49,309 nucleotides of DNA from Girardia tigrina (Eukaryota): positions 1 to 49,309 of the forward strand of contig MQRK01238310.1 in NCBI GenBank assembly GCA_001938485.1, given 5' to 3'. A program made the translations under genes and the position numbers. Positions 2,812-47,024 of the stretch are shown one piece after another. The notes under the pieces are model-generated. The model was not told the DNA's origin and did no database searches. It saw only the letters and a program-made list of their open reading frames with translations. Within the stretch, counting starts at the first letter, position 1, and every line of letters begins with the position of its first letter.

Positions 2812-4656
2812 TTGTTCAAACCTTTCTGATTAAAGCAAAATAGATTAATCTCCCCATGAATATTACAAAATTCTCATTGGCTCAGACCAAGTTGAATTTT
2901 TTTGGTCATACATTCGAAAATGGAAAGATGTCCCTAGATAATAACCCTCTGTTAGAGTTTCCGGATCCTCAAAGTCCAGAAAAGTTGGAAAGATTTATTT
3001 GAATGTTGATGTATGATGCGAAGTGGGTAAAAGACTTCTCAAGAATTGCAAAAGCAAAGAAATTATTTCCTCTGAGTGACATATGCAAGCAAACCATCAC
3101 TGTTCTCAAGAAGGAAATTGCTTCAGCATCATTGATGATTCCTAAAGAAAATGAATTTTTAGTTTTGAAAATTCAATCAATTGGAGCAGTGTTGTCTCAA
3201 GAGGGGCACCCTATTTTATTTTTCTCTCGTAGATTGGATCAGGTAGAGAGTGGTTGGCCAGATATGAAACAAAAGACATTCGCCATTGTTGCAGCGAATA
3301 GAGTACATGTGTTCTTTTCTATTGGGAAAACATTTTTAAATTTTTACGGATCAACAAGGTGTTGCTTACAATTTTGATGGCAGACCAAAAGGCGAGTGTA
3401 AAATGCCAAATTGGAACGGTGGCGAATCCGATTGACTCAGTTTGATTTTGAGATAAAGTATAAATTAGGATCTGCAAATTCAATAGCGGATGATTTTAGT
3501 CGTGTCTGCACAACAGGCTTGCTAGAAAGGATAAGTGTTTCTGATGAGATTTATGTCATTCTGAAATCTGTACAAGAACAAATGTGATATCCGAGGATTG
3601 GAAGGTTTTCCAAGTACATTGAAAGTAACTTTTAATGGAAAATACTAGAATAGTAGTCCAATCATGCATCCGACAATGCCGAATAAGTGCGGAACTCAAA
3701 ACTAAGTTTATCAAAATACCAGATCAGAGACTAGTGGTTTCAAAACGACTATGGGAAAGAATATCGATTGACTTCATTGGCCCAAAAGAGCTATCTCATG
3801 GAAAGTCGTATATTCTGACAGTTATTGATGAATTCACAAGATTTCCGTTTGCATTCTCTGTGATGAATATGTCGACAGGGACTATCATTCAGTGTTTGGA
3901 AGAGCTATTGACAATCTTCGGTCCACCATGTGAAATCCACAGCGACAGAAGGGGACAATTTCAAAGTCGCGCATTAGCTGATCTCCTTAAGACTTGGAAT
4001 ATCAATAAAACGAGAACAACTCTATACAACCCCGTGGAAAATGGTCAGGGTGAACGCCTTAATGGAAAACTGTTCATTTGAGAGTGCTTTGAATGTTCAT
4101 TTGAAAACTGGGCGAGTAGAGGAGTGAGATTGAACGAGCCCTTCCATCAAGAACATTCTTTGATTTCCAGCGCAGATCTACATTGGAGGATCCAGAAAAA
4201 TTTAAAGCAAGTTTACCTACAACATTTAAATTGCCATCATAGATCGCTCTGGGAATGCAGCCTTTTTCAAAAACATGAGAGGTTAAGCAAATCGGATACT
4301 GTAGTGGAAGAAGTGATAATCCGCAATATTATCTGACCTCATATGGTTCAAGTTTACTTTCCAAAGTCGGGAAGAGTGGACACGGTATCATCTAGGAATT
4401 TTTTAAGAAGCCTCTTTGGAAACTCAGAATCCAGTTTTGCATGTGGAGAACCGCACGAATGAAACCCAAATAGAGACCAGTTGAACAGAAGTATAAACTG
4501 AAGAAGCTTATGTGGTGGCCGACCGCATCGTGTGAAAAGAATCTCTGGATATTTGAAGGATTTTGTGAGAGTGAGGGATAATCTGGTGATTGCTTAAATA
4601 ATTGAAAATCCTACTTTTATAATGATAAATAAAAAAAACTAAACTTCGTTGACACA
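2812..4656 (+). mobile_element. Ty3/Gypsy LTR retrotransposon remnant (RT tail, RNase H, integrase, polypurine tract, possible short LTR)
   Basis: Fragments IGAVLSQEGHPILFFSR (RNase H) and WERISIDFIGP...IHSDR...NGQGERLN (integrase core), with the tail RPHRVKRISGYLKDFV. A purine tract at about 4567-4581 precedes a candidate LTR 4582-4656 that contains AATAAA and ends in CA. Many stops and frameshifts. Confidence 0.88.
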
Positions 4657-4798
4657 TAATTTTATTTTAAATATTCACGTTTAAGTTGTATAACCTTTTT
4701 TACAGATGATTTAATTCAGTAATTGTTTTTATTTTCATTATATAATAGAAAATTATTTTAAAATGTATAATCGATCAATTATATAATTAATATAAAAT

Positions 4799-6271
4799 AT
4801 GGATGAAACTTCGGAAATTATTTCCGTTTCATTAAATGTGGTTGAAGATAAAAGCTCGGAGACTATTGAGTCGGAAAATGATTCCGAAATCGATGTGAGC
4901 CAATTTCTCAAAAAAATCGTCATCATCGAAGAAGATCTTCCGGAATTCGATGAAACACATCGAACATATTACGTCAGTCAGTGTCGACATCAGAACATCA
5001 TACCTTCAGATGTGTTCTTGAGAAACATAGAAACCGATACGTTAAATATGCCTCATTACGGTTTACGAGCTAAAGGAATTATACCGATTGCGAATACGTT
5101 AATGTATAATAAAACGATTAGTAAGATAAACTTGTCTGACAATTGGTTATGCGATGAGGGTATTGGAAATATGATGGCCATGGTTAAGATCAACGATGTG
5201 ATCACAGAACTAAATCTTAGTTACAATCAATTGACGAGTGCAAGTGCTCATATTCTTTCGGAGAATCTAGCAAACAGTCCGATTCTTCTTCGATTAGATC
5301 TCAGTAACAATCTGTTCGACGATAAATCGGCAATTCATTTCGGAGAATTGATGATATTGTCATTGAGACTGGAATATTTGAATTTATCGTACAATCGGTT
5401 CTCGTCCGGTTGTTTGGGGCCTTTCGGCAAAGCGTTTCTTCAAACAACAAGTATTGTCGATCTGGATTTATCGTTCAATTCGATCAGTGGAAACGATGAA
5501 ACATATAAAAAATTCATGAAAGGATTAACGAAAAACGTGTGTTTTAAGAGTTTGAATCTTTCATCAAATGGATTCTCAAGTAAAGTAGCATTGTCTTTAT
5601 TTGGAAAAATGTTGAAAGTAAATACGGTTTTGGAGGATCTGGATTTGAGTAATAATCGAATAGGAACTGTCGCTGCGGTGGAATTCGCTAAAAGCCTTTC
5701 GGCATGTAAATCGTTAAAGGTACTGAAAATTGGTAGGAATCCGATTTTGTCTGCAGGTTGTTATGCTATTCTTAATTTCATTTTGAAAAATCCAGAACCT
5801 CCATTTCGGATTTTAGATTTCGAGTCGATTCATGTGAATAACGATTTTCGGGTTTTAGAAGAAAAGCTTATTCAATTTATTCCCGATGTGTACGTTTTGA
5901 CCGGAGTACGATTAATTAAACGAATTTTTCCTACCGTTGATCCGATTATTAGAATGAAATATATTTCGTTGAAGAAGAATATTAATATTGTTCAGTTCTT
6001 TCAAAGATACGCGACTGAAGAAGACAGTAAATATATGAATTTAGACGATATCATTAAAGTCATTGATGATTTTTGTGAGGAATATAATTTCAATCTGCTA
6101 CCAATTGACCGTAAACGTTTATATAAAGCTTTTCCAAGAAACGAAACAAGGACCGTAACGTTTAATATAATTGCGAAAATGTTTGACGAAGAATACGCTG
6201 AGGAAGAGCCGGAATATGAAATGGAACAAGAAGATAAGGGTGTAGAAAAAGAGGAAGATAGTTCTATTTAG
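4799..6271 (+). CDS. LRRC74: Leucine-rich repeat-containing protein 74-like (ribonuclease-inhibitor-type LRRs, acidic termini), single exon, 490 aa
   Basis: Uninterrupted ORF with about 8-9 28-residue LxLSxNxI/L/F repeats. The N-cap YxxxC...IPSxxFLR...LxxxHYGLxxKG...L..N..I..INLSDN resembles LRRC74A/B as I recall it. AATAAA lies about 35 bp after the stop. Confidence 0.85.
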   Translation: MDETSEIISVSLNVVEDKSSETIESENDSEIDVSQFLKKIVIIEEDLPEFDETHRTYYVSQCRHQNIIPSDVFLRNIETDTLNMPHYGLRAKGIIPIANTLMYNKTISKINLSDNWLCDEGIGNMMAMVKINDVITELNLSYNQLTSASAHILSENLANSPILLRLDLSNNLFDDKSAIHFGELMILSLRLEYLNLSYNRFSSGCLGPFGKAFLQTTSIVDLDLSFNSISGNDETYKKFMKGLTKNVCFKSLNLSSNGFSSKVALSLFGKMLKVNTVLEDLDLSNNRIGTVAAVEFAKSLSACKSLKVLKIGRNPILSAGCYAILNFILKNPEPPFRILDFESIHVNNDFRVLEEKLIQFIPDVYVLTGVRLIKRIFPTVDPIIRMKYISLKKNINIVQFFQRYATEEDSKYMNLDDIIKVIDDFCEEYNFNLLPIDRKRLYKAFPRNETRTVTFNIIAKMFDEEYAEEEPEYEMEQEDKGVEKEEDSSI

Positions 6272-11218: not shown

Positions 11219-11809
11219 TTTTAAATATTTATCTCTTTATAAAAAGGTCTCTCGTCCTATAATATCAAATGATGAAGTCGTCTTTTAGAAAATATATAGT
11301 CTATTAAAAACTGTAGCTCAAAATTAAAATTGAGAAATTATATTTTTAAATATTTAAATGAAAATCATTTATTTTAATATGATAATATAATTTGAAAGTA
11401 AAGGAAAAAAAGCGAAATTAACTAATTTTTTAATTTCAAATTTAATTATTTTTCCCTTAAGATAAATTTTATATTCCCACTGGGATTTATCATTCTCAAA
11501 AATGAGTATCGATAAAAATAAAAATAATTATATAATTTCTTTTACATTAAAAATTTTTATTAATTTTCACAGCATCATAAAATTAAATATTTTTGACCTA
11601 ATTTTATACGAAGATTAAATTTTTATTCCTGAGAGGAACATTTTCATATGTATTATTGGTATGTTGTTTGCGACGCATTTTAGAGTGCTGTCTCTTCCCA
11701 AACCTCATGGTGGATTGATTTTCGAACATTTTAAAATTTAAATTATTAAGATAAAATTTATAATTTAATTAAGTGAATGAATACTTTTGAATGAATGCTT
11801 TTTTAATGC

Positions 11810-14800
11810 TTCATAAGTTTCTTATTTGATCTCTATAACGTCTCTGTTTATTCCTTGGAAATTTGCTCCATTATCAGAAACTATGATAGATGGATTTCCT
11901 CTTTTGTCTATGAATCATTTTAAGGCTCTTATAAGATCATCAGTATCTCTTTAGACAATTCAATATGAATTCCCCTACTATGGAGACAAGTGATCAAACA
12001 GATATATCTTTTTTCCTTCGCCCTTCCTCGTCCTTGTTTATTGTATATTGGACCTGCATAATCAATTCCGATTTTATCAAATGCCATTAACGGCTCTCGA
12101 AGCCCGAATTCCGGTATATCACCCATTATCTGAGTCATTTCTTTGGCTGATCTTCTCGAACAGATCTTGCAAAACTTTTGATATCCTTTTACAAATTTCC
12201 GCATTTTTGGAAACCAAAATCTTTCTGATAATTTGTAATACTGTTGATAAACGCCAGCACAGTGAAGATATTCTTGATGAACATGTTTCACTATCAATTT
12301 CGTTTTTGAACTTTTATTAGACAGTATTATCAGATATAGTATATTCCAAGGAAGGTACTCAGATTTCACTATCCTGTTGTTGCTTCTCAACAGTCCGTGT
12401 TCTGCAATCATATGATTTGCTTTTAATATTGAGTCTTTTGCTTTAAGTGTTTTTCCTGCCTTAATTAATTCTATGTGCGATTTAAACCATTCCTTTTGAT
12501 CTTCATTTATTATTTATTTTTCTGCTAATTCAAGCTCACTCTCTTTATGATCATTTTCAACTTCTTTAACTCTATCTATCATATGAGTTTTGATATTTTT
12601 TTCAAGATTAACTTTCTCCAATTCGAATGGTGATTATTAGCCACGGATTTCTAGGAATCATCTTTCTCACCAATATGCACTGTGTTCAAGACAACATATT
12701 TTTCCTCTAACCACACTTCCGTTTTTAACTCTTTTGGTCTTTCTGGCCAATTTTCTTCCTGAAATTGAAGGAATTTCGGCCCCTTCCACCATTTTTGCAT
12801 TTCTTTAAGTTGTGTCACTGAGCACCCTCTAGAAAGAATATCGGCCGGATTGTCCTTTGATGGCACATATCTCCATTGATTTCCTCTAGTAAATTCCTGA
12901 ATATAACCAATTTGATTAGCAGTAAATGTACGAAACCTTTTCCCGTGTCTTGTTACCCAATACAATAAATCCATACTGTCAGCCAAAAAAAAGATTACAT
13001 CTATGGTTATACCCAAGGCGCTGACTAATTTTCTTGCAAAATTTACTCCGACTACCGCAGCCATTAATTCTAATCGTGTAATCGAAACTGCTTTCGTTGG
13101 ACATACTTTTGCTTTCGCTGCTATTATATTGGTATTATCATCATTCTTTTCAATCTCTCTGATGTAACTAACTGCTCCGTAAGCATCCTTAGAAGCATCA
13201 CAAAAGACATGGATTTGAATTTTTTCTCCTTTTTCAATTAAAGTTCTTTTGACACGAATTATATCTAGATTCTTTTGTTGTTCAACACAATTCTGGGCTT
13301 TTATTTTTAACGGTTTTGATATTTTGAGGTCCCAGTCGGTGCCATTCATCCAGATTTCTTGTATTAATATTTTCCCCAGCATTAAACCAAGCGGCTCGTA
13401 AACCTTGGCCAATGCGCCTAAAATCTGACGCTTTGTACACCATTACCGCTACATCTTCTCTAGCATTGAACGAAACTTCATCTCGTTCTGGATCCCATAT
13501 TAAACCCAACGTTTTGGTAACTTTTTCATCCTCATTTAGGATTTGATAAACCTTTGCTTTATCACCTTCTGGAATGATGTTTCTCAGACTTTGTGAATTA
13601 GACACCCACTTCTTAGCATCCATCCCAGCTTGCTTTCACAACCATTTAAAATCTTTATACATTTTTATCTGCTTGCTCTTCTGTCTCAACTGATATTAAA
13701 CTGTCATCCATATACGTTGATTCCAAAATTGATTTTGCCGCTACCGGCAATGATTCCATATTAATGAAAGAATTAGTACTGGCATCGTCCAGTAGGAGGT
13801 TTACCAAGAGTCTGGTTCCTTTATTTATAAGGTAAACAGGAACGGTCCTTAATGAAAACCAGATTTCATCTATCTTTGATAGGGTTAGCTATAAACGTAC
13901 CTCGTTTCGGAATTTGGGAGAATTCTCCTTCAGTAGTTCTAACTTTTTTATCTTCTTTCTCTTCTATTTTTGAATTTGGATCAGGATTCGAGTCGTTTGT
14001 CTTTATATGAAGGTTTGTACAATTATTTCCATATCTACAATTGCCGGATTCGAAATATTTACATTTTATTAGACTTTCTTCCTTTATTAAATTGTGTATC
14101 TATCTTCACGCATTTCCTCTTTTGCAGAAACTCTTTTGAAAATCCCGACATGGTGCTCTTAATTTCTCTTTTCGATCCAACAAGTTTTCTTTCTTCTTTT
14201 TGAAAGAACGATTTTCCTTTGGGAAGTTCTCAAATATTCTAGTTTCAATGTTTAGGATTAAATGTACCGATACCATGAACGGCTTCCGCAGCGGTCCGCT
14301 TTATTTCTACCTCGTTTATCAGCCAATCCCTTAAAACTTATAAATTCTGAGGTTTTCCTTCTGAAAGGCGAGTTCTCTCCCAACGCTCGACTAAAACTTC
14401 CGGTAATTTTGCCACCAAAGTAATGTGTAGTAATCCTCCTTCAATCTCCACTTCCTTGTTATTGTTCTCTGATCTAGAAATGATAGCTTCCTGCAATCTT
14501 ACGAAATATTCCATGTCCTTTAAATTTTTTGCCCTCTTTGGAAAGAACTCATTTATTTCTTTGGCGTATTGCCTTTGAACACCCCCATATTGCTTGTCCA
14601 ATTTGGCAAATATCATTTTGTAGGATTCTTGAGTTTTGTCAATATTTTTGATTAATGTGTTTAGTTCGCCAATAAGGCATTGATTCAACATTATTTACTT
14701 CGCAATATCTGACATCTTTGAGGAATTGACACATGCTTCGAATGTTCGCTTTCATTTTTCATACTCACCCACATTTCCAGAAAATTTGGGTAAGGTGATC

Positions 14801-15718
14801 GGTTGGAATTTTATGGGAATTCTGTCTTTTACCACCTGAACTCGTTCCTCCTCTTTGATCTGTTTATGATTGATGTTGAATCTCTACTTTGCAACTACCA
14901 GCACCTCTTCGTTTTGAACTTCTAATTTTGTCAACTCCTTGTCGATAACTAAGTTGTACTCCTTTTTCTGTAACCGTTTGGCATTAATTGCCATTGATTC
15001 AAAATCCTTCAGAACTTCAATATAACATTCGTTGTACGAAACCATCGTTCTATTGAGTTCTTCAGTTGATATTTCCGCAAGTCCGAGCTTGCTTCTTAAT
15101 TGTAATAATTTATCTTTTGAACTACTCCGGCAAAGCATTTTTCTATCTAATTCATCTTCATCCGTTTCCATGCCTCCTTTCAGGCCAAGCAGAAGATGAA
15201 GTGTAGCATTCTTAGCCATATCACTCTCTTTTATTGTTTTATGATCTTCTATGAGTAATCCATCAAACCATAATTGCTGCAAACTGATTGGAATTCTCTC
15301 CTTGTTTTCAATTTTTGCTTTGTTGTGTTTTATCGTTTCTCGATTCTTCACATCCCTGGCAATTATTTTGCCAGAAAGCTGTTTTATGAATATCTGCAAT
15401 TCTGTGTCTTTTCCTTCAAACTTTTTCTTTTCATCCGCATCTTCCGGCAAATCGAGATCTTCTTTTTTAACACATTCAAGATTCTTTCGAATGACTTTCA
15501 GTGTTTTATTTGGCTGTAACATTTTTCGATTTATATTTAATGGACGATATTCACTGCCAACTACACTCTTCACAAAATTCGAATGTTCTGAAAACAAATT
15601 CTCACAACTGCCCTCAAATATTGCACTTTTACATTCCTTTTTGTTGTTCTATAACATCTTTAAGACTCGTCAGCTTAAATCCGGTCAACTGGTGGGAGTA
15701 TGTGAGATTTGTATTCAT
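11810..15718 (-). mobile_element. Second BEL/Pao LTR retrotransposon (ubiquitin-Gag, protease, internally deleted RT, RNase H, integrase), degraded
   Basis: DUF1759-like Gag ITLPKFSGNVGEYEK*KRTF...MLNQCLIGE (about 14800-14340), protease LLLDDAST (about 13790), RT TYMDD (about 13710), RNase H HVFCDASKDAYG, WRYVPSKDNPADILSRG, and integrase GIDYAGP...VSDNGANF. No LTRs recognised. Confidence 0.92.
15172..15399 (-). pseudogene. Ubiquitin domain (76 aa, ending LKGG) in frame with BEL/Pao Gag
   Basis: Residues 67-142 of ORF 14884-15597 align without gaps to canonical ubiquitin; I count 35/76 identities by hand. The di-glycine is immediately followed by Met. Confidence 0.92.
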
Positions 15719-16039
15719 TATTTGATTACTTATTTCGGCATTTAAACTCGTAATATTTGTTAACCTAGACTCGTAATTTTCGATTTCGGTTGGTTTGAAT
15801 CATGGATATTTGATCAAGTTCTTGTCTATGCTCGATTCCAGCTGTATAATAATCGTTTTCCTTGGATACCAATATCTTAATACAATCTTCCAGATCATTG
15901 TCACTAACAGATTGAGATTCCATGTAAATATCACGGAGATGTGTTTCCAATCCAACAAGAATATCAAGAGTTTCACAGTTTTCCAGCTCTTCTACGTCGT
16001 CTTTTATATCGCCTTTTTTGACAAATCCGACGAATACCT

Positions 16040-19000
16040 TAAATGTTCAAATTGCAACGCTCCATGTCATTTATGGTACCAGTGTTATAAACAACAAGCA
16101 CTGAATGTACATCGAGATCAGAAAAGATGGCAACCCAACCGATACAAAGCACCATTCACTGGAATCGATGAAATGAATGAAACAAACAGATACGAAGGCG
16201 ACTGATCGGTAAACTCGGAGGCTCTATCAAGTCAAGAGATGATTTGAGCCATAAATTAAAAAGTAAGAATGTTTTGGCTCCAAACATTTGTAATATTAGT
16301 AACTGTAAATGTAATTTTAATTATAATAATTTTAATGATAATATATTACATAATAATTATAGTATATGTAGTTTTAATAATAATAATTATAAAGAAGTAA
16401 TGCCAAATATGGGGAATTTTAATGATAATATGGTTCAAGAGCGCACAATATATAAGTTTGAAATTTGTTCGAGTGAGAAACTAGACTATTTGGAGTTTAA
16501 TGGAAGACCCAGTATTAAAGCTAGGATGGACGGAATAGAGATGAATTGTTTATTGGACACTGGTGCTCGTATTAATGTACTGGACAAGAAAATTGTTGAA
16601 AAATTACAGGTTAGAATAAATAGGAATGTTATATCGTCAGTTTTTTGTGCAAACGGAAGTGGAATGGAAATACTAGGTACATGTAATATTATAATAGTAT
16701 GGAGAAATAAGAAAGTGAACCAGTTATTTTATGTTTCAGAAACAGTGTTCCCATCAATTATTTTCGGAATAACCTTGATAAGAGCTATTGGGTTGGAATT
16801 GAGATGGAATTTAGAACTGATAAATGGAAATGAAAAAAAATATAATTGAAACCGATAGAGAAGTATGCGCTCTAAATCCATATATAGATAAGTTGAAATA
16901 TACAGATGAAATGAGAATTTTAAATGCCAAAGAAAAATTAAATTTAAATGAGGATAGCAAACTATACACATGTAATAAAAAGTTTTAAAATATTTTTATG
17001 GCTGGATGATGGGACATTCGTAAGACATCACTAGTAAAACATCGAATTAAGACATCAGGGCAACCAATTCTACAGAAACCGCGAAGACAACAAACTCATT
17101 TAGAAAGTCATATAGATTATGCTGTTCATAATTTGGAACGACACGGGATAATAGAGAAATGCTCATCACCATGGAACACACCGATGGTGTGTGTTTGGAA
17201 AAAGGAAAAGAAGGAAATTCGTTTATGCTTGGATTTCAGGTTGTTGAATTAAGTGACAGAGAAGCTAGCCTTTCCTATACCAAACATCGAGGAAATGTTA
17301 GATTCATTAAGAGGAATGAAATGGTTCAGTTCCATTGACCTGGGAAATACCTACTATCAAATAGAATTAGAAGATTCTTCAAAGTTGAAAACAGCATTTT
17401 CAACTAAAATTGGACAGTATTGCTTCACAAGAATGCCGTTTGGCATTGCAGCTGCACCTGCAACATTTCAGAAGCTTATGACGGATGTTTTGAAAGAGAT
17501 GTCGTGGAAAGAAGCCCTGGTCTATCTTGACGACATTTTGATTTTTTTGAAAACCGAAATGGAACACATGGAAAAGTTGGAAAAACTATTTGCATGAATA
17601 GAAATGGCTGGACTGAGAATAAATCCCGAAAAATGTAGGTTCTTTCAAAAAGAACTACGATTTTTGGGACATATAGTGAACAGAGACGGAATTAAGACTG
17701 ACCCAGACAAAATAAAATCGATAGTGGAATTCGAACAACTAAAATGTATAAAGAAATTGCGAAGTTTCTTGACACTATGTAATTATTATAGAAAGTTTAT
17801 ACAAAATTATTCAAAACTATCAAAACTATTGGAAGAAATGGGTGGAAGTTCGAAAGACATGGTGCATGGGTCAGATTCTAACTCAGTGGCATTTAAAAAC
17901 TGAAGGAAGTACTAATATCGGTCCCAATACTTTGTTATCCTGATTTTGGGAAAGAATTTATATTAGACACTGATGCTTCTTTTGATACTATAGGAGCAAT
18001 GTTATCCCAAAGGAATGAGAAAGGTGATGAACAGGTGATTGCATACGGATCTAAGTCAATGACAAAACATGAGATTGGATATTACATTACCAGAAAAGAA
18101 CTTTTAGCAATTTTTCATTTCACGCAACACTTTAAGCACTACTTGTATGGTGCAAAATTTAAGTTAAGAACCGATCATAGGCAATTGAATTTATGATGAC
18201 GACGAAAAAGCCGATTACCCCTCAGTTTCAAAATTGGATGAATTTTCTGAGCAGTTTGGATATGATCTTAGAATATCGTAAAGGGGAATTACACAAAAAT
18301 GCAGATGCATTATCACGAAAAGACTGTATGGTATGTTCACAATGTATGATACATCATGAACAGGCAAAACGAGAACACGAATGTTTGCGATGGATGAAGA
18401 CGCATTGTCAATTCCATGGCAACAAAATAGTAGAGAAATCTGTGAAATAATGAAACAAATAGAAGAAGGAAAGGGGACAAAATTTAAGCAAAGTTCTTGT
18501 TATAAGAACTTTTGATAACAAGATTTTGATTCCGAAGGAAACAAGGAACGATTGTATTTTATTTTTCCATAAATTTCTGTGTCGGTCGGGAGTAAATAAA
18601 ACGTACACATTCATGAGAAAAAAATATGACATTGAGGAGTTTAGAAAAAATGTTGAAAGAATAATACGAGCATGTGTAGTGTGTCAAACATCTAAAACTT
18701 ATACGAGAATAACAAAAGAGAACACAATGAACTTGATTTCAAAACGACCATTCGACGATATTTACATGGATTATTGTGGACCTATGCCAGTGATAAATGG
18801 AAAAGAAATATATTTTTGGTATAATAGACAGATTTAGTAGGTATGTTAGTCTCACAGCAGTAAATAACCAAGACGAGATGACAACAATACAGACAATACA
18901 ACGTCAATGGATATTTAGGTTTGGAGCTCCAGCATGTATCCACGTGGACCATGGAAAAGTATTCGAATCGCGGACATTTATGGAATTTGCAAAATCTCGA

Positions 19001-20147
19001 TTGATTAAGATAAAATTCTCAAGTCCTTACCATCATAATTCGAATGGAATAATAGAGAGACAATTTCGAACAGTTCGAAATTCATTAAATGCGACTTTAA
19101 AAAGAGAGGAAGTAAAAATTGGATAGAGTTACTTCCAGAGATAGAATTTAGTATGAATGGATCGAGAAAAAGCACTATTGGATATAGTCCTGCGGAATTA
19201 ATTCTGGGAAAACGGTTAACCCTTGACGACTCACGACATTATGAATTGGACAACAAGAAGATAAATGCCGAAGTTAAAATGTCAGAGATGAGCAAACCTA
19301 ATGTAACGATAACAAAACGGGATTTCTGGGTCGGTGACTGGGTACTAGTGAAAATAGACAATAGGCAGAAAGGATCAGACCGTTATGAAGGACCGTATGA
19401 AATTATTCGTAAAGACAATGACCGTTGTGTTGAAATGCGGAATAAATCAGGTCGAATAATTCAGAGAAATATAACGGATAACATGAAATAGTAGGACATC
19501 TACTATTTTAATAGTAGGTGGAAAAAAAATTGAAAAGGCGCCCAATATTGGTTTACACCTACTATTTGGTGCTTTTGTTTTGAACTTGTCNNNNNNNNNN
19601 NNNNNNNNNNNNNNNNNNNNNNNNNNNNNNNNNNNNNNNNNNNNNNNNNNNNNNNNNNNNNNNNNNNNNNNNNNNNNNNNNNNNNNNNNNNNNNNNNNNN
19701 NNNNNNNNNNNNNNNNNNNNNNNNNNNNNNNNNNNNNNNNNNNNNNNNNNNNNNNNNNNNNNNNNNNNNNNNNNNNNNNNNNNNNNNNNNNNNNACGATA
19801 CACCTACTATTTGATTCCACCTACTATTTTAATAGTAGGTGGAAAATTTTTTGAAAACTTCATTACACCTACTATTTCATGTCCACCTACTATTTGATGT
19901 TATCCGTTAGAATGGCTTAAGCCTTTTAAAGAATGGGGGTGTAAGGATAAAGAACTATATTTATATCTATATTATTTAAACTATAATAAGATAATATTTA
20001 CAATATTATAATAATGATTCCAAAATATTCTGAATTAAGTCTCTTGATGATTTTTGTTTAAATAAACAAAAAACGCGCACTTTTTAAATACGAATAAATT
20101 TTTTGAAATTTATACTTATTAATATTTATTGATGGAAAATTCTTACA
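16040..20147 (+). mobile_element. Ty3/Gypsy LTR retrotransposon, near-complete but degraded gag-pol with polypurine tract and candidate 3' LTR
   Basis: CCHC knuckle CSNCNAPCHLWYQC, protease LLDTGA, RT MPFG and YLDD, RNase H DTDAS and RKELLAI, integrase MDYCGP...HVDHG...IER. The purine tract AAAGAATGGGGG precedes TGTAAG at 19940, and CTTACA ending at 20147 is a candidate LTR end. Confidence 0.92.
19474..19907. mobile_element. MITE with TA target-site duplication inserted in the Gypsy integrase tail
   Basis: Terminal inverted repeats ACGGATAACAT(G/C)AAATAGTAGG are flanked by TA at 19472-73 and 19908-09. Repeated ACCTACTATT units occur internally in both orientations. Contains an N gap. Confidence 0.8.
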
Positions 20148-36400: not shown

Positions 36401-39400
36401 TTCAACAAGAAATAAAAATATTTCTTGTCTTTTTCCTTATTACAAACTTTTGAAAAGCAATAAGGTAAGTTCAAATAGACTGGGACTTCTTGTTATCTTA
36501 ATAAGTTTAGTATGTCGATCAGCATAGTTCTGTACGAAATTGACAATAAATAAATAAACCTCACAGCAATCAAGAGGTATCAGAAGTAACATAACAAGAG
36601 TGATAACTTAAAATCATGATCGTCAAACATCAATTTTATCATCCAAGAATTTCAGACTTTCGTAATATTTTGGATCAATAATTGAGCAAATAATCAAATA
36701 AGATCAAACACAACGGTCAAATCTGATGCGGATTCTGTCTAAAAAACACAAAAATATATAAAATTGATCTTCTATTCTTTATTGGTGTTTGTCGTTTATA
36801 TCAATCAATCTTTATTTGTTGCCGTTTGGAGGGAGTTAAATGATTATCATTTCGTTTAAAATTAGTATATGATTGTGAAGTCATGCCACACATTCCTAAG
36901 ACTACCTTCTTACACAGATTACCCAAATTAATGTAAATTCAGTGATACTTCTAAAAGAATTTAATATTAAGGGTCTCACATGTACCACACTCATATAATT
37001 ATATATAAAAAAGTATAAAATATTAATCGAAAACATATAGACTGAAAAGAATTACATCGTGAAGAATACTTTATCAAAAGAGGTACTTATTAAAGCACTC
37101 TTTTAATTATTTACAATTCGGTTCCCCTACTTCCTTTTATTGTGATCAAAATTTGTTTCTTTATATCTTTCAAATCCTTCCGTTTTAATTTTTTCTTGTT
37201 CTATTTAATAATTATAAATATATATTATTAATACTTATTCGTAAAAGATAAATATTTATTTATAATTATAAGATGAACAGCACATATTAATTGAACGCAT
37301 AATAATAAATACATTCATTAAGTACCGTCTCTCTTGTAATTATATTAATATTTTTTATATTATCTTTTTATTACAAAAAAGTGTTTTGAAACACAAAATA
37401 TCCAAACACAAAATAAAAATCTTATTTTCAGGCAGAATATTCCGAAGACTAAAATTACGGTTCTTATATTAATGATCACATATTATTTATAATTATGCAA
37501 AACTGATAAACTTATAATTCAGTCATATGTTACCATACATTGTGTCCCACAATTGTGTCCCATATAATTATTCATTATAAAAGAAGTACAAATAAGAAAA
37601 ACAACATAACACTTAAAAAACAAAGTTTATTAGTGCAACTCAATACGTCCCCCATCATCTCTAATTATATCATTACATCGTTTGATGAAAGATTTGCAGG
37701 CTTTTCGGATAAGTTCTTCAGAAATTGGATTCCATACTTTTGTCAATTTTCTTTTGAATTCATTGATGCTCATTTTTAAGTCAAGTTCGTTAAGTGAATT
37801 TCACAATACCCCAGATTGAGTAATCTATAGGATTTAAAACTGGTGATACTGCTGGTTATGAAGCCTAGTAAGTTATCTTTGCACCATTGTTGCACATGTT
37901 TAGCTGCATGAGCAGGCGTAGAATCCTGCTCGAAAACCCATGATTAATTGCCAAGTAATTTTCTTGTATTTGGAAGCCGGTGCGACTTCAAGACAGTTTC
38001 CAAATAATAATAATGATTTATTTTTACTCTTACTTCAATAAACAATAACGGATACCGACCTTTAAAACTTACTGCAGCTCATACCATTACTCCCTTAGAT
38101 CCTTGAGACCTTTCAACAAATCTTTCATTGATAGGAATTTCACTGATTAAATGAGACCAAATCCGATAGTTCTGCGGATTATGCTGCTGTTGAAGCATAA
38201 AAAGCTTTTCATCAGAAAATATGATCGTCAATCGTGAGTGCAATCGAATAATTTTTTGACAACGTTCCTTACGCGCTTTTTAGTTTTTTATTTAGAGTCG
38301 TATGAGCTTTCTGACGTGTGTAAGCTTTTATATGCAAGGAATACTTTAAGATTCTGTACACTGAACTTTAACTTATATTTAATTTTTGGTGGTTTTCCAC
38401 ACTGTCATTTCTTTTTTTATTGTACGCTTAACCTGTCCTTGCATTTGACGAATCCGTACAAAAATTTCCTGCTGGCTTATTATGGAACAATAGAGCCAGT
38501 TCGTTCCCATCTCTTAATTGTTCAGTAAATAAATTTTCTGTTAATAACTTCACATGAACAATATTCCAAAGTTTCAACTGGTTTTTCACCTTTTTGATGA
38601 TGTTTTAAGACTTTTTCACGCTTGTAAATTAACTGATTCGTATCCAATGTAAATTAGAAATTAAAACAACGTTGGTGTAAAGAATTAATATATCCGTTTA
38701 ATTTTTTACAATTATTTCGATATTAAATAATATCCAACAATAAAATATCTAAAGAAATATAAAAAGATACATCCAAAAACGAATTTATTTCCCAAATTCC
38801 CGACAAACAACTTAACAATTCATATTCAATGTTTTATCAATTATTTTTAACTGTTAGTTAATATCTCTTTTATATGGTAGAAGTAATGATTAAAAAGTTT
38901 AAAAGAAACACTGCAAAAATATTTTTTCTTATTTTTACTTATTTTAGATTAAACAATTAATGGGACACAATTGTGGGACACCGTCTACATATTAGCACAT
39001 TGAGTGTCACAGATATTTTCACTATTTTTTAACAATTTTATTTTACTTTTACCCTATTTATAATCACCAAAAGTGATTTGTCACGAAGGATTATCAAAGT
39101 GCAAAAATATGACATAAATAGATTTACCACGTCCCGTGAAGGTTTGAGCATGTAATGTATTAATTACAGCATATATATAATTTTTATTTATTATAATAAG
39201 TTATTAAATGAGTTATATTATTTTATAGATATGAAAGTCTTCCAAAATTCACTGATTCTTTTATTGCTAATTTATCCTTGGACATTTACTTTGCCGGAAT
39301 GGATGCTTATGGTATTGGATTCTCGTGGACAATAGGATTGCTAGCATGTCATCCTCAAGTACAAGACAAAGTTCGCCAAGAATTGCAAGTAATGTCAACA

Positions 39401-39889
39401 GAAACCGGAGAAACTTTTAATGAAACATGGATGGACAAACTCCACTATTTAAATGCTGTTGTAAATGAAGTAATGCGTATTCACAGCTTAAGTTCTTTTA
39501 CGTCGTTCCATCGAGCAACAGCTGACGTTAAAATTCAAGAGTACGATATACCGAAAGATACTATTATTGCTCTAAATATATACGGAGCTCATTATGATGA
39601 AAGATATTGGAAAAATCCGAAAGAATTCAACCCTGAAAGATTTTTAAATGAAGAAAAGAAGTTTCAATTACCAAAAGAAGGTTTTATGCCATTCGGTGCC
39701 GGTCCGAGGATATGTATTGCAGAAAGATATACAGTTAAAGAGTCTCATTTTATTTTCACCGGAAGAATCTGTCAAGACTTTCGAATAGTTTGGAGTAAAA
39801 AAAATGAAATAAATGAAGTCGTTGAAGATTCGGAAAATACATTTTTCAGACATACGGCCCCTTTCTATGTAGAATTCCATCCACTTTAA
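28920..39889 (+). CDS. Cytochrome P450, CYP2-clan-like, 5 exons, predicted 508 aa
   Basis: Exons 28920-29247, 29298-29635, 31798-31893, 31943-32046 and 39229-39889 join through GT-AG introns with matching phases (1527 nt). Motifs: membrane anchor, LPPGPKAWPLVGS, WTELR, I-helix FAGMDA, EVMR, FNPERF, FGAGPRICIA. Confidence 0.9.
29950..30269 (-). mobile_element. Penelope-like GIY-YIG C-terminal remnant in P450 intron 2
   Basis: FYCESLLIRHYNPLINIH parallels the end of the 9486 ORF. TTGAAGATGATC...GATAGAGACATGTTA (29985-29950) is a decayed hammerhead-like core. Confidence 0.6.
30270..30965 (-). mobile_element. C2H2-finger retroelement 3' end, copy B, in P450 intron 2
   Basis: CTIEDCLKEFAEQKELNRHLKRDH, xQCSKGYKTKGWFTRHLRNDH and CPFRGCTKSTNTAKGMLNHGTTIH; clearly homologous to copy A. 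Confidence 0.7.
33121..33457. repeat. Inverted copy of the 27430 repeat, ending in a (TA)n run at a gap
   Basis: Reverse-complement similarity to 27430-27696. Confidence 0.7.
34188..35406 (+). mobile_element. Mariner (DD34D-type) transposon with both TIRs, inactivated, in P450 intron 4
   Basis: TIRs TTAGGTTGTTTAAAAAA with TA duplications. Decayed transposase with KWIP*EL, DEKW, LLHDNARPH, HPPYSPYLSPTD and a YFD* end. Confidence 0.9.
35715..35895. repeat. AT-rich dispersed repeat; inverted copy at 41037-41226
   Basis: Shared CCATCTGAGTAGGAG and CATACAAACAACAAACTTACAACATTCC blocks. Confidence 0.7.
37538..38985 (-). mobile_element. Tc1/mariner-superfamily element, probably maT/DD37D, with both TIRs, inactivated, in P450 intron 4
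   Basis: TIR core GTGTCCCACAATTGTGTCCCA at both ends with TA flanks. Minus-strand motifs IFSDEKLF, VFEQDSTPAH and SPVLNPIDYSIW. Confidence 0.82.
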
Positions 39890-45270: not shown

Positions 45271-47024
45271 TTTTATATTATTTTGACTGATCATCATTGA
45301 GAATTTTAAAATATCAAATATACAGGATTTTCAGTACAATTTCGTGATTTTAAAGTTCAATCTCGTCATTTTTTAGTTCAATTTCGTCATTTTCAGTTCA
45401 ATTTAATCTATTTTAATTTCAATTTCGTTAATTTTTTTTAAATTTCGTTAAAAAAGCAAAAAGGCATATTATTTTCAAAATCTATATTTTTACATAGGAA
45501 ATAATCTGAAAAGCATATTGTACAATGACATTTATAGACAGAAACAACACCTAAAAATCTTAAAATAAAAAATTTAGTAGAAACCTCTTAGTTCCCTCAT
45601 CATTTGCCTGAAGAATCCATTGCAATCATCATTGGTAATTCGGTCAAAATCTTCGTCAATCAACCTGTTGAGCTCGTCACCATTATTTGGAGCAGCGCGT
45701 CTGATGTAGTCCTTCCATTTGGCGAACATATTTTCAATAGCATTGAACTGGCGGCAAGAAGAGAATTTTGTGTCGTGCTGTTTCAAAGAGTGTTTGGACG
45801 TTTCCACTCTTATGAAAAGCCATATTATCCATAACAATTGTGCATTTTGTAAAATTTCCTGCGTTCAACCAAGTAACAAAGTCTTGTATAAAGTTGGTAA
45901 AGGTCGTTCCATTAAATGCTGTGTTCTGTTGACTGAAAAATTTTTCTCCATCTTTATTGATTGCCGCACAAATACTTATGTTACGTGACCTAATACCAGG
46001 TGCAGTAAGAATTGGAGTTTCTGCCGAGCGCCCTCTTCCATAGCTGCTACGCATGCAAATATTCACACCAACTTCATCCAAAAAGAAAAAAATTACGTCA
46101 TATTTCTGTAATATTAAATCTTGAAATTGGTTTGAGTATTGTATCCGTGCTAACATATTACTATCTGAAATGCTTCTTTCTGTGACGACCTTTAATCTTT
46201 TGAAGGTGTAGTGTAAGTCTTTCAAGCTATTGCATATTGCAGTAACTGACAAATCAACGCTAAAATTAGTGTTCGCCTCTAACCTCAGTGAGTTCAGAGT
46301 AATATCACATTTTTCATCTACTCTTGATTGTATAAATGTCTTCATTTGATTTGTGATTTTGGTGTACCTGTGTCCGCCTTTCGGTTTTTGTAAAATTCGA
46401 TTTTCTTTTTTGTAAACATCAACGATTGATTGAATTGTAGTGCGTGACAATCTGAATATTAAGACGATTTCTTTAATGGATTTTCTTAACTGATAATTTT
46501 CAACTATTAGGTTTCAGACGTCATTGGAAATTTTATTTCTAACCATAAGCGTTTGTTAAAACAAAATTTTTATGCAATTAAAAGATAATAACGAAATTGA
46601 ATTAAAAAATGAAGAAATTGTACTGAAACCGCTGTAATACGGATTTCAATAAAATAATCCGAACACAAGAAGTTTCAGAATAAAAATCAAAATTTGTTCA
46701 CTATATATTAAATTATCAGAAATATTTCAAAGTTTAATCTAATTTACCGAAATTTTTTTATTGATCATATTTTTGGTGAATTGTTATCGAATTTCGATGG
46801 ACGATTTTAAGAATTACTTTGAAACTAAATTATCGACAGATTTTTGATTGAGACGAATTTTTATCGAATTTATTTGTTCATTTTTTAGGCGAAATCGACT
46901 TTGAATAATGAACGAATTTTGATTTTTATTCTGAAACTTCTTGTGTTCGAATTATTTTATTGAAATCTGTTTTATATTTGATATTTTAAAATTCTCAATG
47001 ATGATCAGTCAAAATAATATAAAA
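45271..47024. repeat. Foldback/MITE with about 115-bp arms, left arm split by a Tc1 insertion
   Basis: 45271-45322 joined to 46637-46700 is the reverse complement of about 46910-47024. Confidence 0.8.
45323..46634 (-). mobile_element. IS630/Tc1-like (DDE) transposon with TIRs, inactivated
   Basis: TIRs CAGnnnTTTCAGTACAATTTC with TA duplication and subterminal TTCAATTTCGT repeats. The transposase from ATG 46546 has an early stop, FLDEVG, VMDNMAFH, and a frameshift at FLPP before NAIENMF. Confidence 0.9.

Follow-up and report, generated by a model that had tools for sequence, protein, structure and literature searches.

A ubiquitin-like domain fused ahead of Gag in a clade of BEL/Pao retrotransposons, probably a processing signal borrowed from the host

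The BEL/Pao remnant described here belongs to a clade of retrotransposons that most likely carries a borrowed host processing signal, namely a genuine, clade-wide ubiquitin-like domain (Ubl) that lies ahead of Gag and is under selection. The window analyzed was the whole 49,309-nt stretch of a Girardia tigrina contig (MQRK01238310.1; assembly GCA_001938485.1). In an earlier note made from the sequence alone, 15399-15172 (-) was read as a 76-aa Ubl that matches ubiquitin at 35/76 positions and ends in Gly-Gly, with Met directly after it. This reading was borne out by an ungapped alignment to this genome's own ubiquitin and by a Pfam match. The features of the element are as follows.

11802..16039 (-): BEL/Pao remnant of family A (blastn against the LTR-bounded copies L081, L083, L087 and L090)
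15607..16039 (-): leader, a coiled-coil-like coding region common to family copies and frameshifted in the window copy
15478..15606 (-): captured HSP90 middle-domain fragment 1 (PF00183, E 7.8e-12; 72% nt identity to host HSP90 L158)
15415..15486 (-): captured HSP90 fragment 2 (85% nt identity to host HSP90 L158)
15172..15399 (-): Ubl of 76 aa ending in Leu-Lys-Gly-Gly (PF00240, E 9.7e-17; AlphaFold model)
between 15172 and 15171 (-): proposed deubiquitinase (DUB) cut site, predicted after Gly-Gly
14785..15171 (-): N-terminal helical region of Gag, opening with Met-Glu; stop at 14884-86 (translation)
14374..14784 (-): Gag core, DUF1759; stops at 14752-54 and 14695-97 (PF03564, E 5.7e-9, with X at stops)
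14006..14150 (-): two CCCH-type zinc fingers, the first broken, frameshifted (translation)
13753..13830 (-): start of the aspartic protease, fused over a deletion to the end of the reverse transcriptase (RT) (translation)
12654..13752 (-): RT end and RNase H region (Peptidase_A17), broken (PF05380, E 3.8e-38)
11802..12513 (-): integrase, partial and broken (PF17921, E 3.8e-8)

The window copy is truncated at its 5′ end, has no LTR and no matching 3′ LTR, lacks ~1.1 kb between the protease and the RT, and contains many stop codons and frameshifts across 16039-11802 (-). Its leader, with frameshifts, reaches at least to position 16039; the only Pfam matches of the leader, obtained with copy L081, were weak coiled-coil ones. 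The two HSP90 fragments are joined across ~365 nt of the host gene, and both stand in frame directly upstream of the Ubl. The reading frame 15648-14341 (-) unites the HSP90 pieces, the Ubl and Gag, with a further stop at 14338-40. Translation and Pfam searches confirmed the earlier proposal that the Ubl and the DUF1759 Gag share one frame, interrupted by stops at 14884, 14752 and 14695. Zinc-finger matches (PF00642 and PF18044) were obtained for the relatives L062, P0006 and P0154, and the ubiquitin-less relatives P0002 and P0056 open with a region homologous to the helical N-terminus of Gag.

A DNA search of the organism's own genome (1.43 Gb) returned 397 candidates, 40 of which were scored; those besides the window copy were 87-93% identical. 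All 30 family A loci that were fetched carried the Ubl (the query included this domain), which answers the concern that other copies might be without it. Because the Ubl is family-wide, it cannot be a lone insertion that the window copy acquired recently. Full-length family A copies measure 7.1-7.2 kb, and L081 and L090 have LTRs of 317 and 333 bp that are 95-96% alike, with 5-bp flanks that show one mismatch. All family A copies whose translations were read are broken, and the window copy is a dead member of this multicopy 7.1-kb LTR family. Gly-Gly can still be read in 22 of 28 distinct copies, and one copy retains 533 open codons spanning leader, Ubl and Gag. The family A leader comprises ~350 codons, with a coiled-coil-like part followed by the two host HSP90 pieces; HSP90 fragment 1 is dispensable, given that 30 of the 40 copies scored are missing 90 nt of it. 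Contigs from runs labelled organisms A, B and D, those of B and D presumed to be RNA, bridged the Ubl-Gag junction with more than 31 bases on each side, and no bridging was found among the listed pieces from organism C. A host pseudogene lying beside an element was ruled out, as the Ubl is in frame and contigs bridge the junction. A word-index search with the window's Gag helix, a weak test, found nothing, and the ESM Atlas offered DUF1759 clusters alone (at 0.80), a lead at best.

Compared with ubiquitin, the window family departs at Arg42, Ile44, Lys48, Val70, Arg72 and Arg74, and its tail reads Leu-Gly-Leu-Lys-Gly-Gly. The Ile44 patch, Arg42, Arg72, Arg74 and Lys48 are positions with roles in conjugatable ubiquitin. 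The window domain has the ~76-aa beta-grasp and C-terminal Gly-Gly that define the ubiquitin-like fold; the window family falls short of ubiquitin proper, a conjugatable modifier, which families C, D and F nearly reach. An AlphaFold model of the window Ubl adopts the beta-grasp fold (pLDDT 89.9; TM to solved ubiquitin up to 0.95), a partly circular result in that the input alignment, from which host ubiquitin was excluded, supplied 20 diverged element domains as related Ubl rows. Folded without an alignment, the same domain gave a meaningless helical model (pLDDT 54.6). At the nucleotide level, the window Ubl is 58% identical to the closest of 28 host units and synonymous sites are saturated, which excludes the near-identical host insertion that the earlier note had considered. 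NEDD8 was judged by eye to be an unlikely source of the domain.

The Ubl-Gly-Gly-Gag junction recurs in eight public proteins and, within this genome, in about ten further BEL/Pao families that have diverged deeply; the resulting families are A to J, plus that of locus L171. A genome search with PF00240 yielded 3445 candidates, of which 150 were scored and 20, picked for long open frames, were fetched; most of these 20 were other BEL/Pao families with near-native ubiquitin ahead of Gag. Searching with DUF1759 alone, which avoids the ubiquitin bias, yielded 1330 candidates (150 scored), and 50 loci were read (the top 30 and 20 chosen from the 150). A ubiquitin match lay upstream in 33 of these 50. 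In the remaining 17 the 5′ end was cut short, masked, replaced or too diverged; for 16 of them a Ubl occurs in other members of the family, and L137, the seventeenth, has as its sister P0014, where the tail is present. None of the 50 DUF1759-found loci showed a complete Gag start lacking a Ubl. Identity to host ubiquitin ranges from 27 to 74 of 76 residues across families. Near-native Ubls (69-74/76 host residues, Ile44 patch included) occur in families B, C, D and F, and the Ubl of family G is identical at 27/75 positions, yet matches Pfam at E 4e-13. The domains of family G and of the P0154/L171 family are further decayed than that of the window family. A Gag-alone search of 1.84 billion representatives returned 150 proteins; a ubiquitin match was present in 6 of the 152 proteins examined, P0006 has the tail, P0154 has a decayed domain, and P0156 was found additionally. 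P0055 comes from elsewhere, since nothing in this genome matches it at more than 44% along its length. None of the 110 proteins outside the group had a significant ubiquitin match (best E 0.064), and 62 of the 110 start with a Met at least 120 residues ahead of the Gag core.

In a Gag-core tree of 148 rows, all Ubl-bearing rows fell into one group of 38 (SH-aLRT 98). A careful Gag tree of 49 rows, prepared by dropping 15 near-copies and hand-picking 26 outgroup rows, placed 23 group rows on one side of a branch with 99/99 support; two of these 23 rows are without their 5′ end and were added after the first tree was seen. An RT tree of 25 rows agreed (support 83), and the RTs of Ubl-bearing families are ~40% identical to each other. 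These phylogenies indicate that the Ubl is a clade-wide trait of an old BEL/Pao branch. Within BEL/Pao, the clade probably falls in the Flow superfamily, in its planarian branch (NC-63, BEL1-I_SM); by eye, its RT and integrase resemble those of Schmidtea mediterranea NC-63, as represented in the available part of PMC3118150.

One capture inherited unchanged was ruled out by the disagreement between Ub and Gag similarities. Between F and F2, Gag is 92% identical at the nucleotide level versus 69% for Ub, and the leader is not common to both; between D and C/F, Ub is 92% identical in nucleotides and Gag 45% in amino acids. The ubiquitin of family B is 90-92% identical in nucleotides to the host polyubiquitin gene L034, with a dS of 1.16 to family C versus 0.34-0.48 to the host. 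In families A, B and E, the HSP90 pieces correspond to differing parts of a single host gene (72-87%). These sequence relationships indicate that families have exchanged the Ubl module among themselves and have also taken it anew from host polyubiquitin; the likely route is a switch of template to abundant host mRNAs while reverse transcription proceeds.

When 13 lineage representatives were compared with host ubiquitin, identity reached 13/13 at Leu73 and 25/26 at Gly75-Gly76, with 79% in the core, 81% at lysines, 55% in the Ile44 patch and 62% in the rest; positions were grouped into assigned residue classes (core, Ile44 patch), and three of the 13 representatives are near-host, which raises all identities. 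The C-terminal Leu-x-Gly-Gly is nearly invariant although the rest of the Ubl diverges. Families C, D, E and F also retain, further upstream, part of a second ubiquitin unit. The Gly-Gly of this upstream unit has been lost in 14 of 14 copies and that on the Gag side kept in 13 of 14, same-family copies being non-independent. The residue that follows Gly-Gly was Ser (10), Met (6) or else Thr, Gly or Ala in all 19 rows with an intact tail, which are related by descent; in the twentieth row, P0062, Gly-Gly is lost. Met, Ser, Thr, Gly and Ala are all stabilizing N-termini under the N-degron rules.

Across 29 family A copies, variants of the Ubl shared between copies comprised 22 silent and 34 replacing changes (39% silent) and single-copy variants 29 and 104 (22%; p=0.019), a modest test of one family and seven regions. 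The same test gave p=0.007 for DUF1759 and p=0.022 for integrase; the leader and the HSP90 piece were not significant, nor were the Gag N-terminus (p=0.43) and the RNase H control (p=1; 13 copies). The dN/dS of about 1 that had been raised as a possibility was thus not seen, shared variants being enriched in silent changes. Pairwise dN/dS of the Ubl, with transition bias uncorrected, was 0.48 within A, 0.29 in B, 0.18 in C and 0.28 in E. Against the host at similar dS, family B gave 0.04-0.12 for Ub and 0.28 for the HSP90 piece, values that include the host's purifying branch. Together, these patterns argue that the Ubl fold and tail are under selection. The view of long residence under selection put forward in the earlier note holds as regards selection and a clade-wide trait; what does not stand is one old capture, in place of which repeated re-capture is indicated.

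We consider it probable that host DUBs cut after Gly-Gly, freeing Gag from a variable translated leader. In the ancestor of the clade, a host ubiquitin would have been taken up where Gag natively begins, in frame with it. Translation of the element RNA would begin a long way upstream, in many cases running through the primer-binding site, and would produce leader-Ubl-Gly-Gly-Gag-Pol; in 6 of 22 rows (families C, E, F and L171) no stop interrupts the Ubl frame between the primer-binding site and Gly-Gly, with 0 of 7 such rows in family A. A DUB cut after Gly-Gly would give Gag a fixed, stable N-terminus whatever the sequence upstream, and because of this the leader would be free to change and to gather pieces of abundant host mRNAs, e.g., HSP90. 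Recombination during reverse transcription would occasionally put a new sequence in place of the Ubl, taken from host polyubiquitin or from the module of a different family. Release of Gag by DUBs would account for a tail that is conserved, an upstream junction that is lost, a binding surface that is loosely kept and a leader that varies; both the enzyme and the benefit to the element are putative. The weak point is the tail of the window family, which, without Arg42 and Arg72, may be cut poorly by ordinary ubiquitin-specific proteases and may require a tolerant DUB or undergo slow cutting. It is conceivable, if doubtful, that in near-native families the leader-ubiquitin piece with its free Gly-Gly could be conjugated to host or element proteins, captured fragments included; the clade would then be retrotransposons with their own ubiquitin-like modifier, tuned from inert (family A) to active by re-capture.

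It is unlikely that ubiquitin serves mainly to boost Gag-Pol yield or folding, as in ubiquitin-ribosomal protein fusions, or the translation context, with leader release as a by-product. N-terminal ubiquitin has a chaperone effect, the fold and core are conserved, and near-native ubiquitin has been re-acquired several times; however, the Ubl stands behind 150-350 leader codons, away from the N-terminus, and very decayed domains (P0154, L171) retain just the tail. This reading also requires cleavage itself, and so overlaps with DUB release. Were the Ubl to remain on Gag as a binding module or degradation tag (e.g., for ESCRT or proteasome receptors), the host residues that families B, C, D and F keep at 69-74 of 76 positions, Ile44 patch included, would make sense, but that patch is the least conserved class (55%) and Gly-Gly the most conserved, and the junction that would not free Gag lost its Gly-Gly in every one of 14 copies. 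Linear ubiquitin fusions with a terminal Gly-Gly are normally cut fast, and we regard retention on Gag as very unlikely. For the window family in particular, where the Ile44 patch and Arg42/Arg72 are lost, the alternative offered earlier, that the domain engages ubiquitin machinery, is disfavoured. Cutting by the element's own aspartic protease, with Gly-Gly a mere flexible linker, is highly improbable: these elements encode a protease and the most decayed families hold little besides the tail, but the conserved features are a folded beta-grasp domain plus Leu-x-Leu-x-Gly-Gly, which is what host DUBs read, whereas retropepsins favour hydrophobic residues at the cut. The most improbable of these readings, already largely refuted, is that abundant ubiquitin mRNA was captured by chance and kept solely since the frame must stay open, as the HSP90 pieces seem to be (they differ in A, B and E, have internal deletions and lack the 90 nt in 30 of 40 family A copies), with homology favouring repeated host-mRNA exchange and no benefit needed; against this, a full-length Ubl with Gly-Gly persists over families with RTs ~40% identical, the upstream loss of Gly-Gly is position-specific, and the excess of silent changes in the Ubl is not significant in HSP90 or the coiled-coil leader.

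To our knowledge, LTR retrotransposons rely on a protease of their own for polyprotein processing, and the sequence that comes after the 5′ LTR is non-coding. Release of Gag by host DUBs, if true, would explain how an element samples host mRNA fragments in its leader with Gag unharmed, would provide a graded natural set of ubiquitin variants (27 to 74 of 76 identical) shaped by selection on processing alone, and predicts that specific host DUBs are needed for BEL/Pao activity in planarians. The families also preserve a dated history in which a retroelement has repeatedly exchanged sequence with a host gene that ranks among the most conserved.

In families A, C, D, E, G and L171, the LTR is succeeded by a conserved site that looks like one for initiator tRNA-Met; the genome has 17 matches to a tRNA-like 3′ end, and ARAGORN and Rfam called no tRNA in the 5 loci tested. 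This site seems unlike the tRNA-Arg or tRNA-Gly primer-binding site that the ICTV profile, a descriptive account, gives for Belpaoviridae together with a non-coding region after the 5′ LTR (PMC8742986). The same profile gives LTRs of 0.2-1.2 kb, a genome of 4.2-10 kb and Gag followed by PR-RT-RH-INT (PMC8742986). In LTR and genome size (0.3 kb and 7-8 kb in family copies), the order Gag(DUF1759)-PR-RT-RH-INT and the presence of DUF1759 and Peptidase_A17, the elements are like Belpaoviridae, and they group with public BEL/Pao polyproteins. They depart from that norm in having ubiquitin and a putatively coding, host-derived leader before Gag, and CCCH fingers in several families. The word ubiquitin occurs 0 times in the available part of PMC3118150 (text and supplements, the element FASTA lying outside) and is absent from PMC8742986, and PMC9289625 names it solely in a reference; no paper on ubiquitin in BEL/Pao Gag was among the matches listed by full-text literature searches, which took in neither Repbase reports nor subscription journals.

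Host precursors (polyubiquitin, Ub-eL40, Ub-eS31) likewise have Ub-Gly-Gly fused to a following protein, and both kinds of gene were seen in this genome; unlike them, the elements have a long leader ahead of ubiquitin and a domain free to diverge. Giant Ty3/gypsy elements of planarians, Burro and GYPSM1, carry captured host domains linked to apoptosis and ubiquitination, e.g., BIR and MATH, but they are of another superfamily with other domains, and ubiquitin itself is unnamed in the part of the account available (PMC6431247). A close parallel in layout is found in cytopathic pestiviruses (BVDV Osloss, CP1, CP Rit), where ubiquitin captured by RNA recombination is cut by host hydrolases, freeing NS3 with its authentic viral N-terminus (PMC8310069). 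There, as here, captured host ubiquitin with extra host sequence upstream is placed ahead of the viral or Gag protein. The pestivirus inserts are recent and sporadic, whereas the insert described here is fixed in an old clade, up to 65% diverged and repeatedly exchanged. If DUBs do release Gag, the clade would leave its first cut to the host and represent an old and stable equivalent of the pestivirus inserts, which are sporadic.

Besides the BEL/Pao remnant of family A, whose 5′ end is truncated, the window carries the following:

2553-727 (-), second pol fragment of BEL/Pao type, with 87% identity to P0154, a public protein with a decayed ubiquitin-like domain (Ubl)
3003-4081 (+), broken Ty3/gypsy element
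4796-6271 (+), LRR frame
16181-19500 (+), broken Ty3/gypsy element
39212-39889 (+), cytochrome P450 exon
45734-46513 (-), Tc1/mariner-type transposase

Several MITE-like inverted repeats were also found. By its identity to P0154, the second pol fragment, the 5′ end of which is absent from the window, belongs to a different family of the clade that carries a Ubl before Gag, a family whose Ubl is much decayed. The Ty3/gypsy element at 16181-19500 lies head to head with the family A remnant and adjoins its truncated 5′ end.

Analysis of the host ubiquitin genes (L034-L060) showed a wide spread of third-position G+C (0.17-0.70), and the G+C-rich polyubiquitin gene L034 was the closest donor for the ubiquitin of families B, C, D, E, and F. 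At another locus (L032:847-1780), a ubiquitin identical to that of the host shares a single frame with a second, decayed unit after it and, further on, a CCHC knuckle; this may be another kind of element that has become joined to a ubiquitin gene.

The coding region upstream of the Ubl (the leader) included the primer-binding site, read in frame, at L067, L076, L105, L114, and L127, and at L067 an ATG overlapped the first bases of that site. Comparison of two LTR-bounded family A copies (L081 versus L090) revealed at least two distinct LTR ends, one type having an ATG within the last LTR bases, 5′ of the primer site. In-frame host fragments were observed 5′ of the leader among L067, L076, L063, and P0156, namely arginine methyltransferase (PF22528), HR1 (PF02185), and RNA polymerase subunit N (PF01194); some of these fragments may lie outside the LTR.

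In six family B variants (L063, L066, L069, L070, L077, L080), a long, repetitive coiled-coil frame after the Gag N-terminus replaced DUF1759 and Pol; these are possibly non-autonomous derivatives. Two CCCH zinc fingers were found 3′ of the Gag core in several clade families (window 14150-14006 (-), L062, L127, L171, P0006, P0154), whereas family D (L075) looked canonical in this region. Outside relatives, represented by P0002, instead have CCHC-type knuckles at the position of the CCCH fingers.
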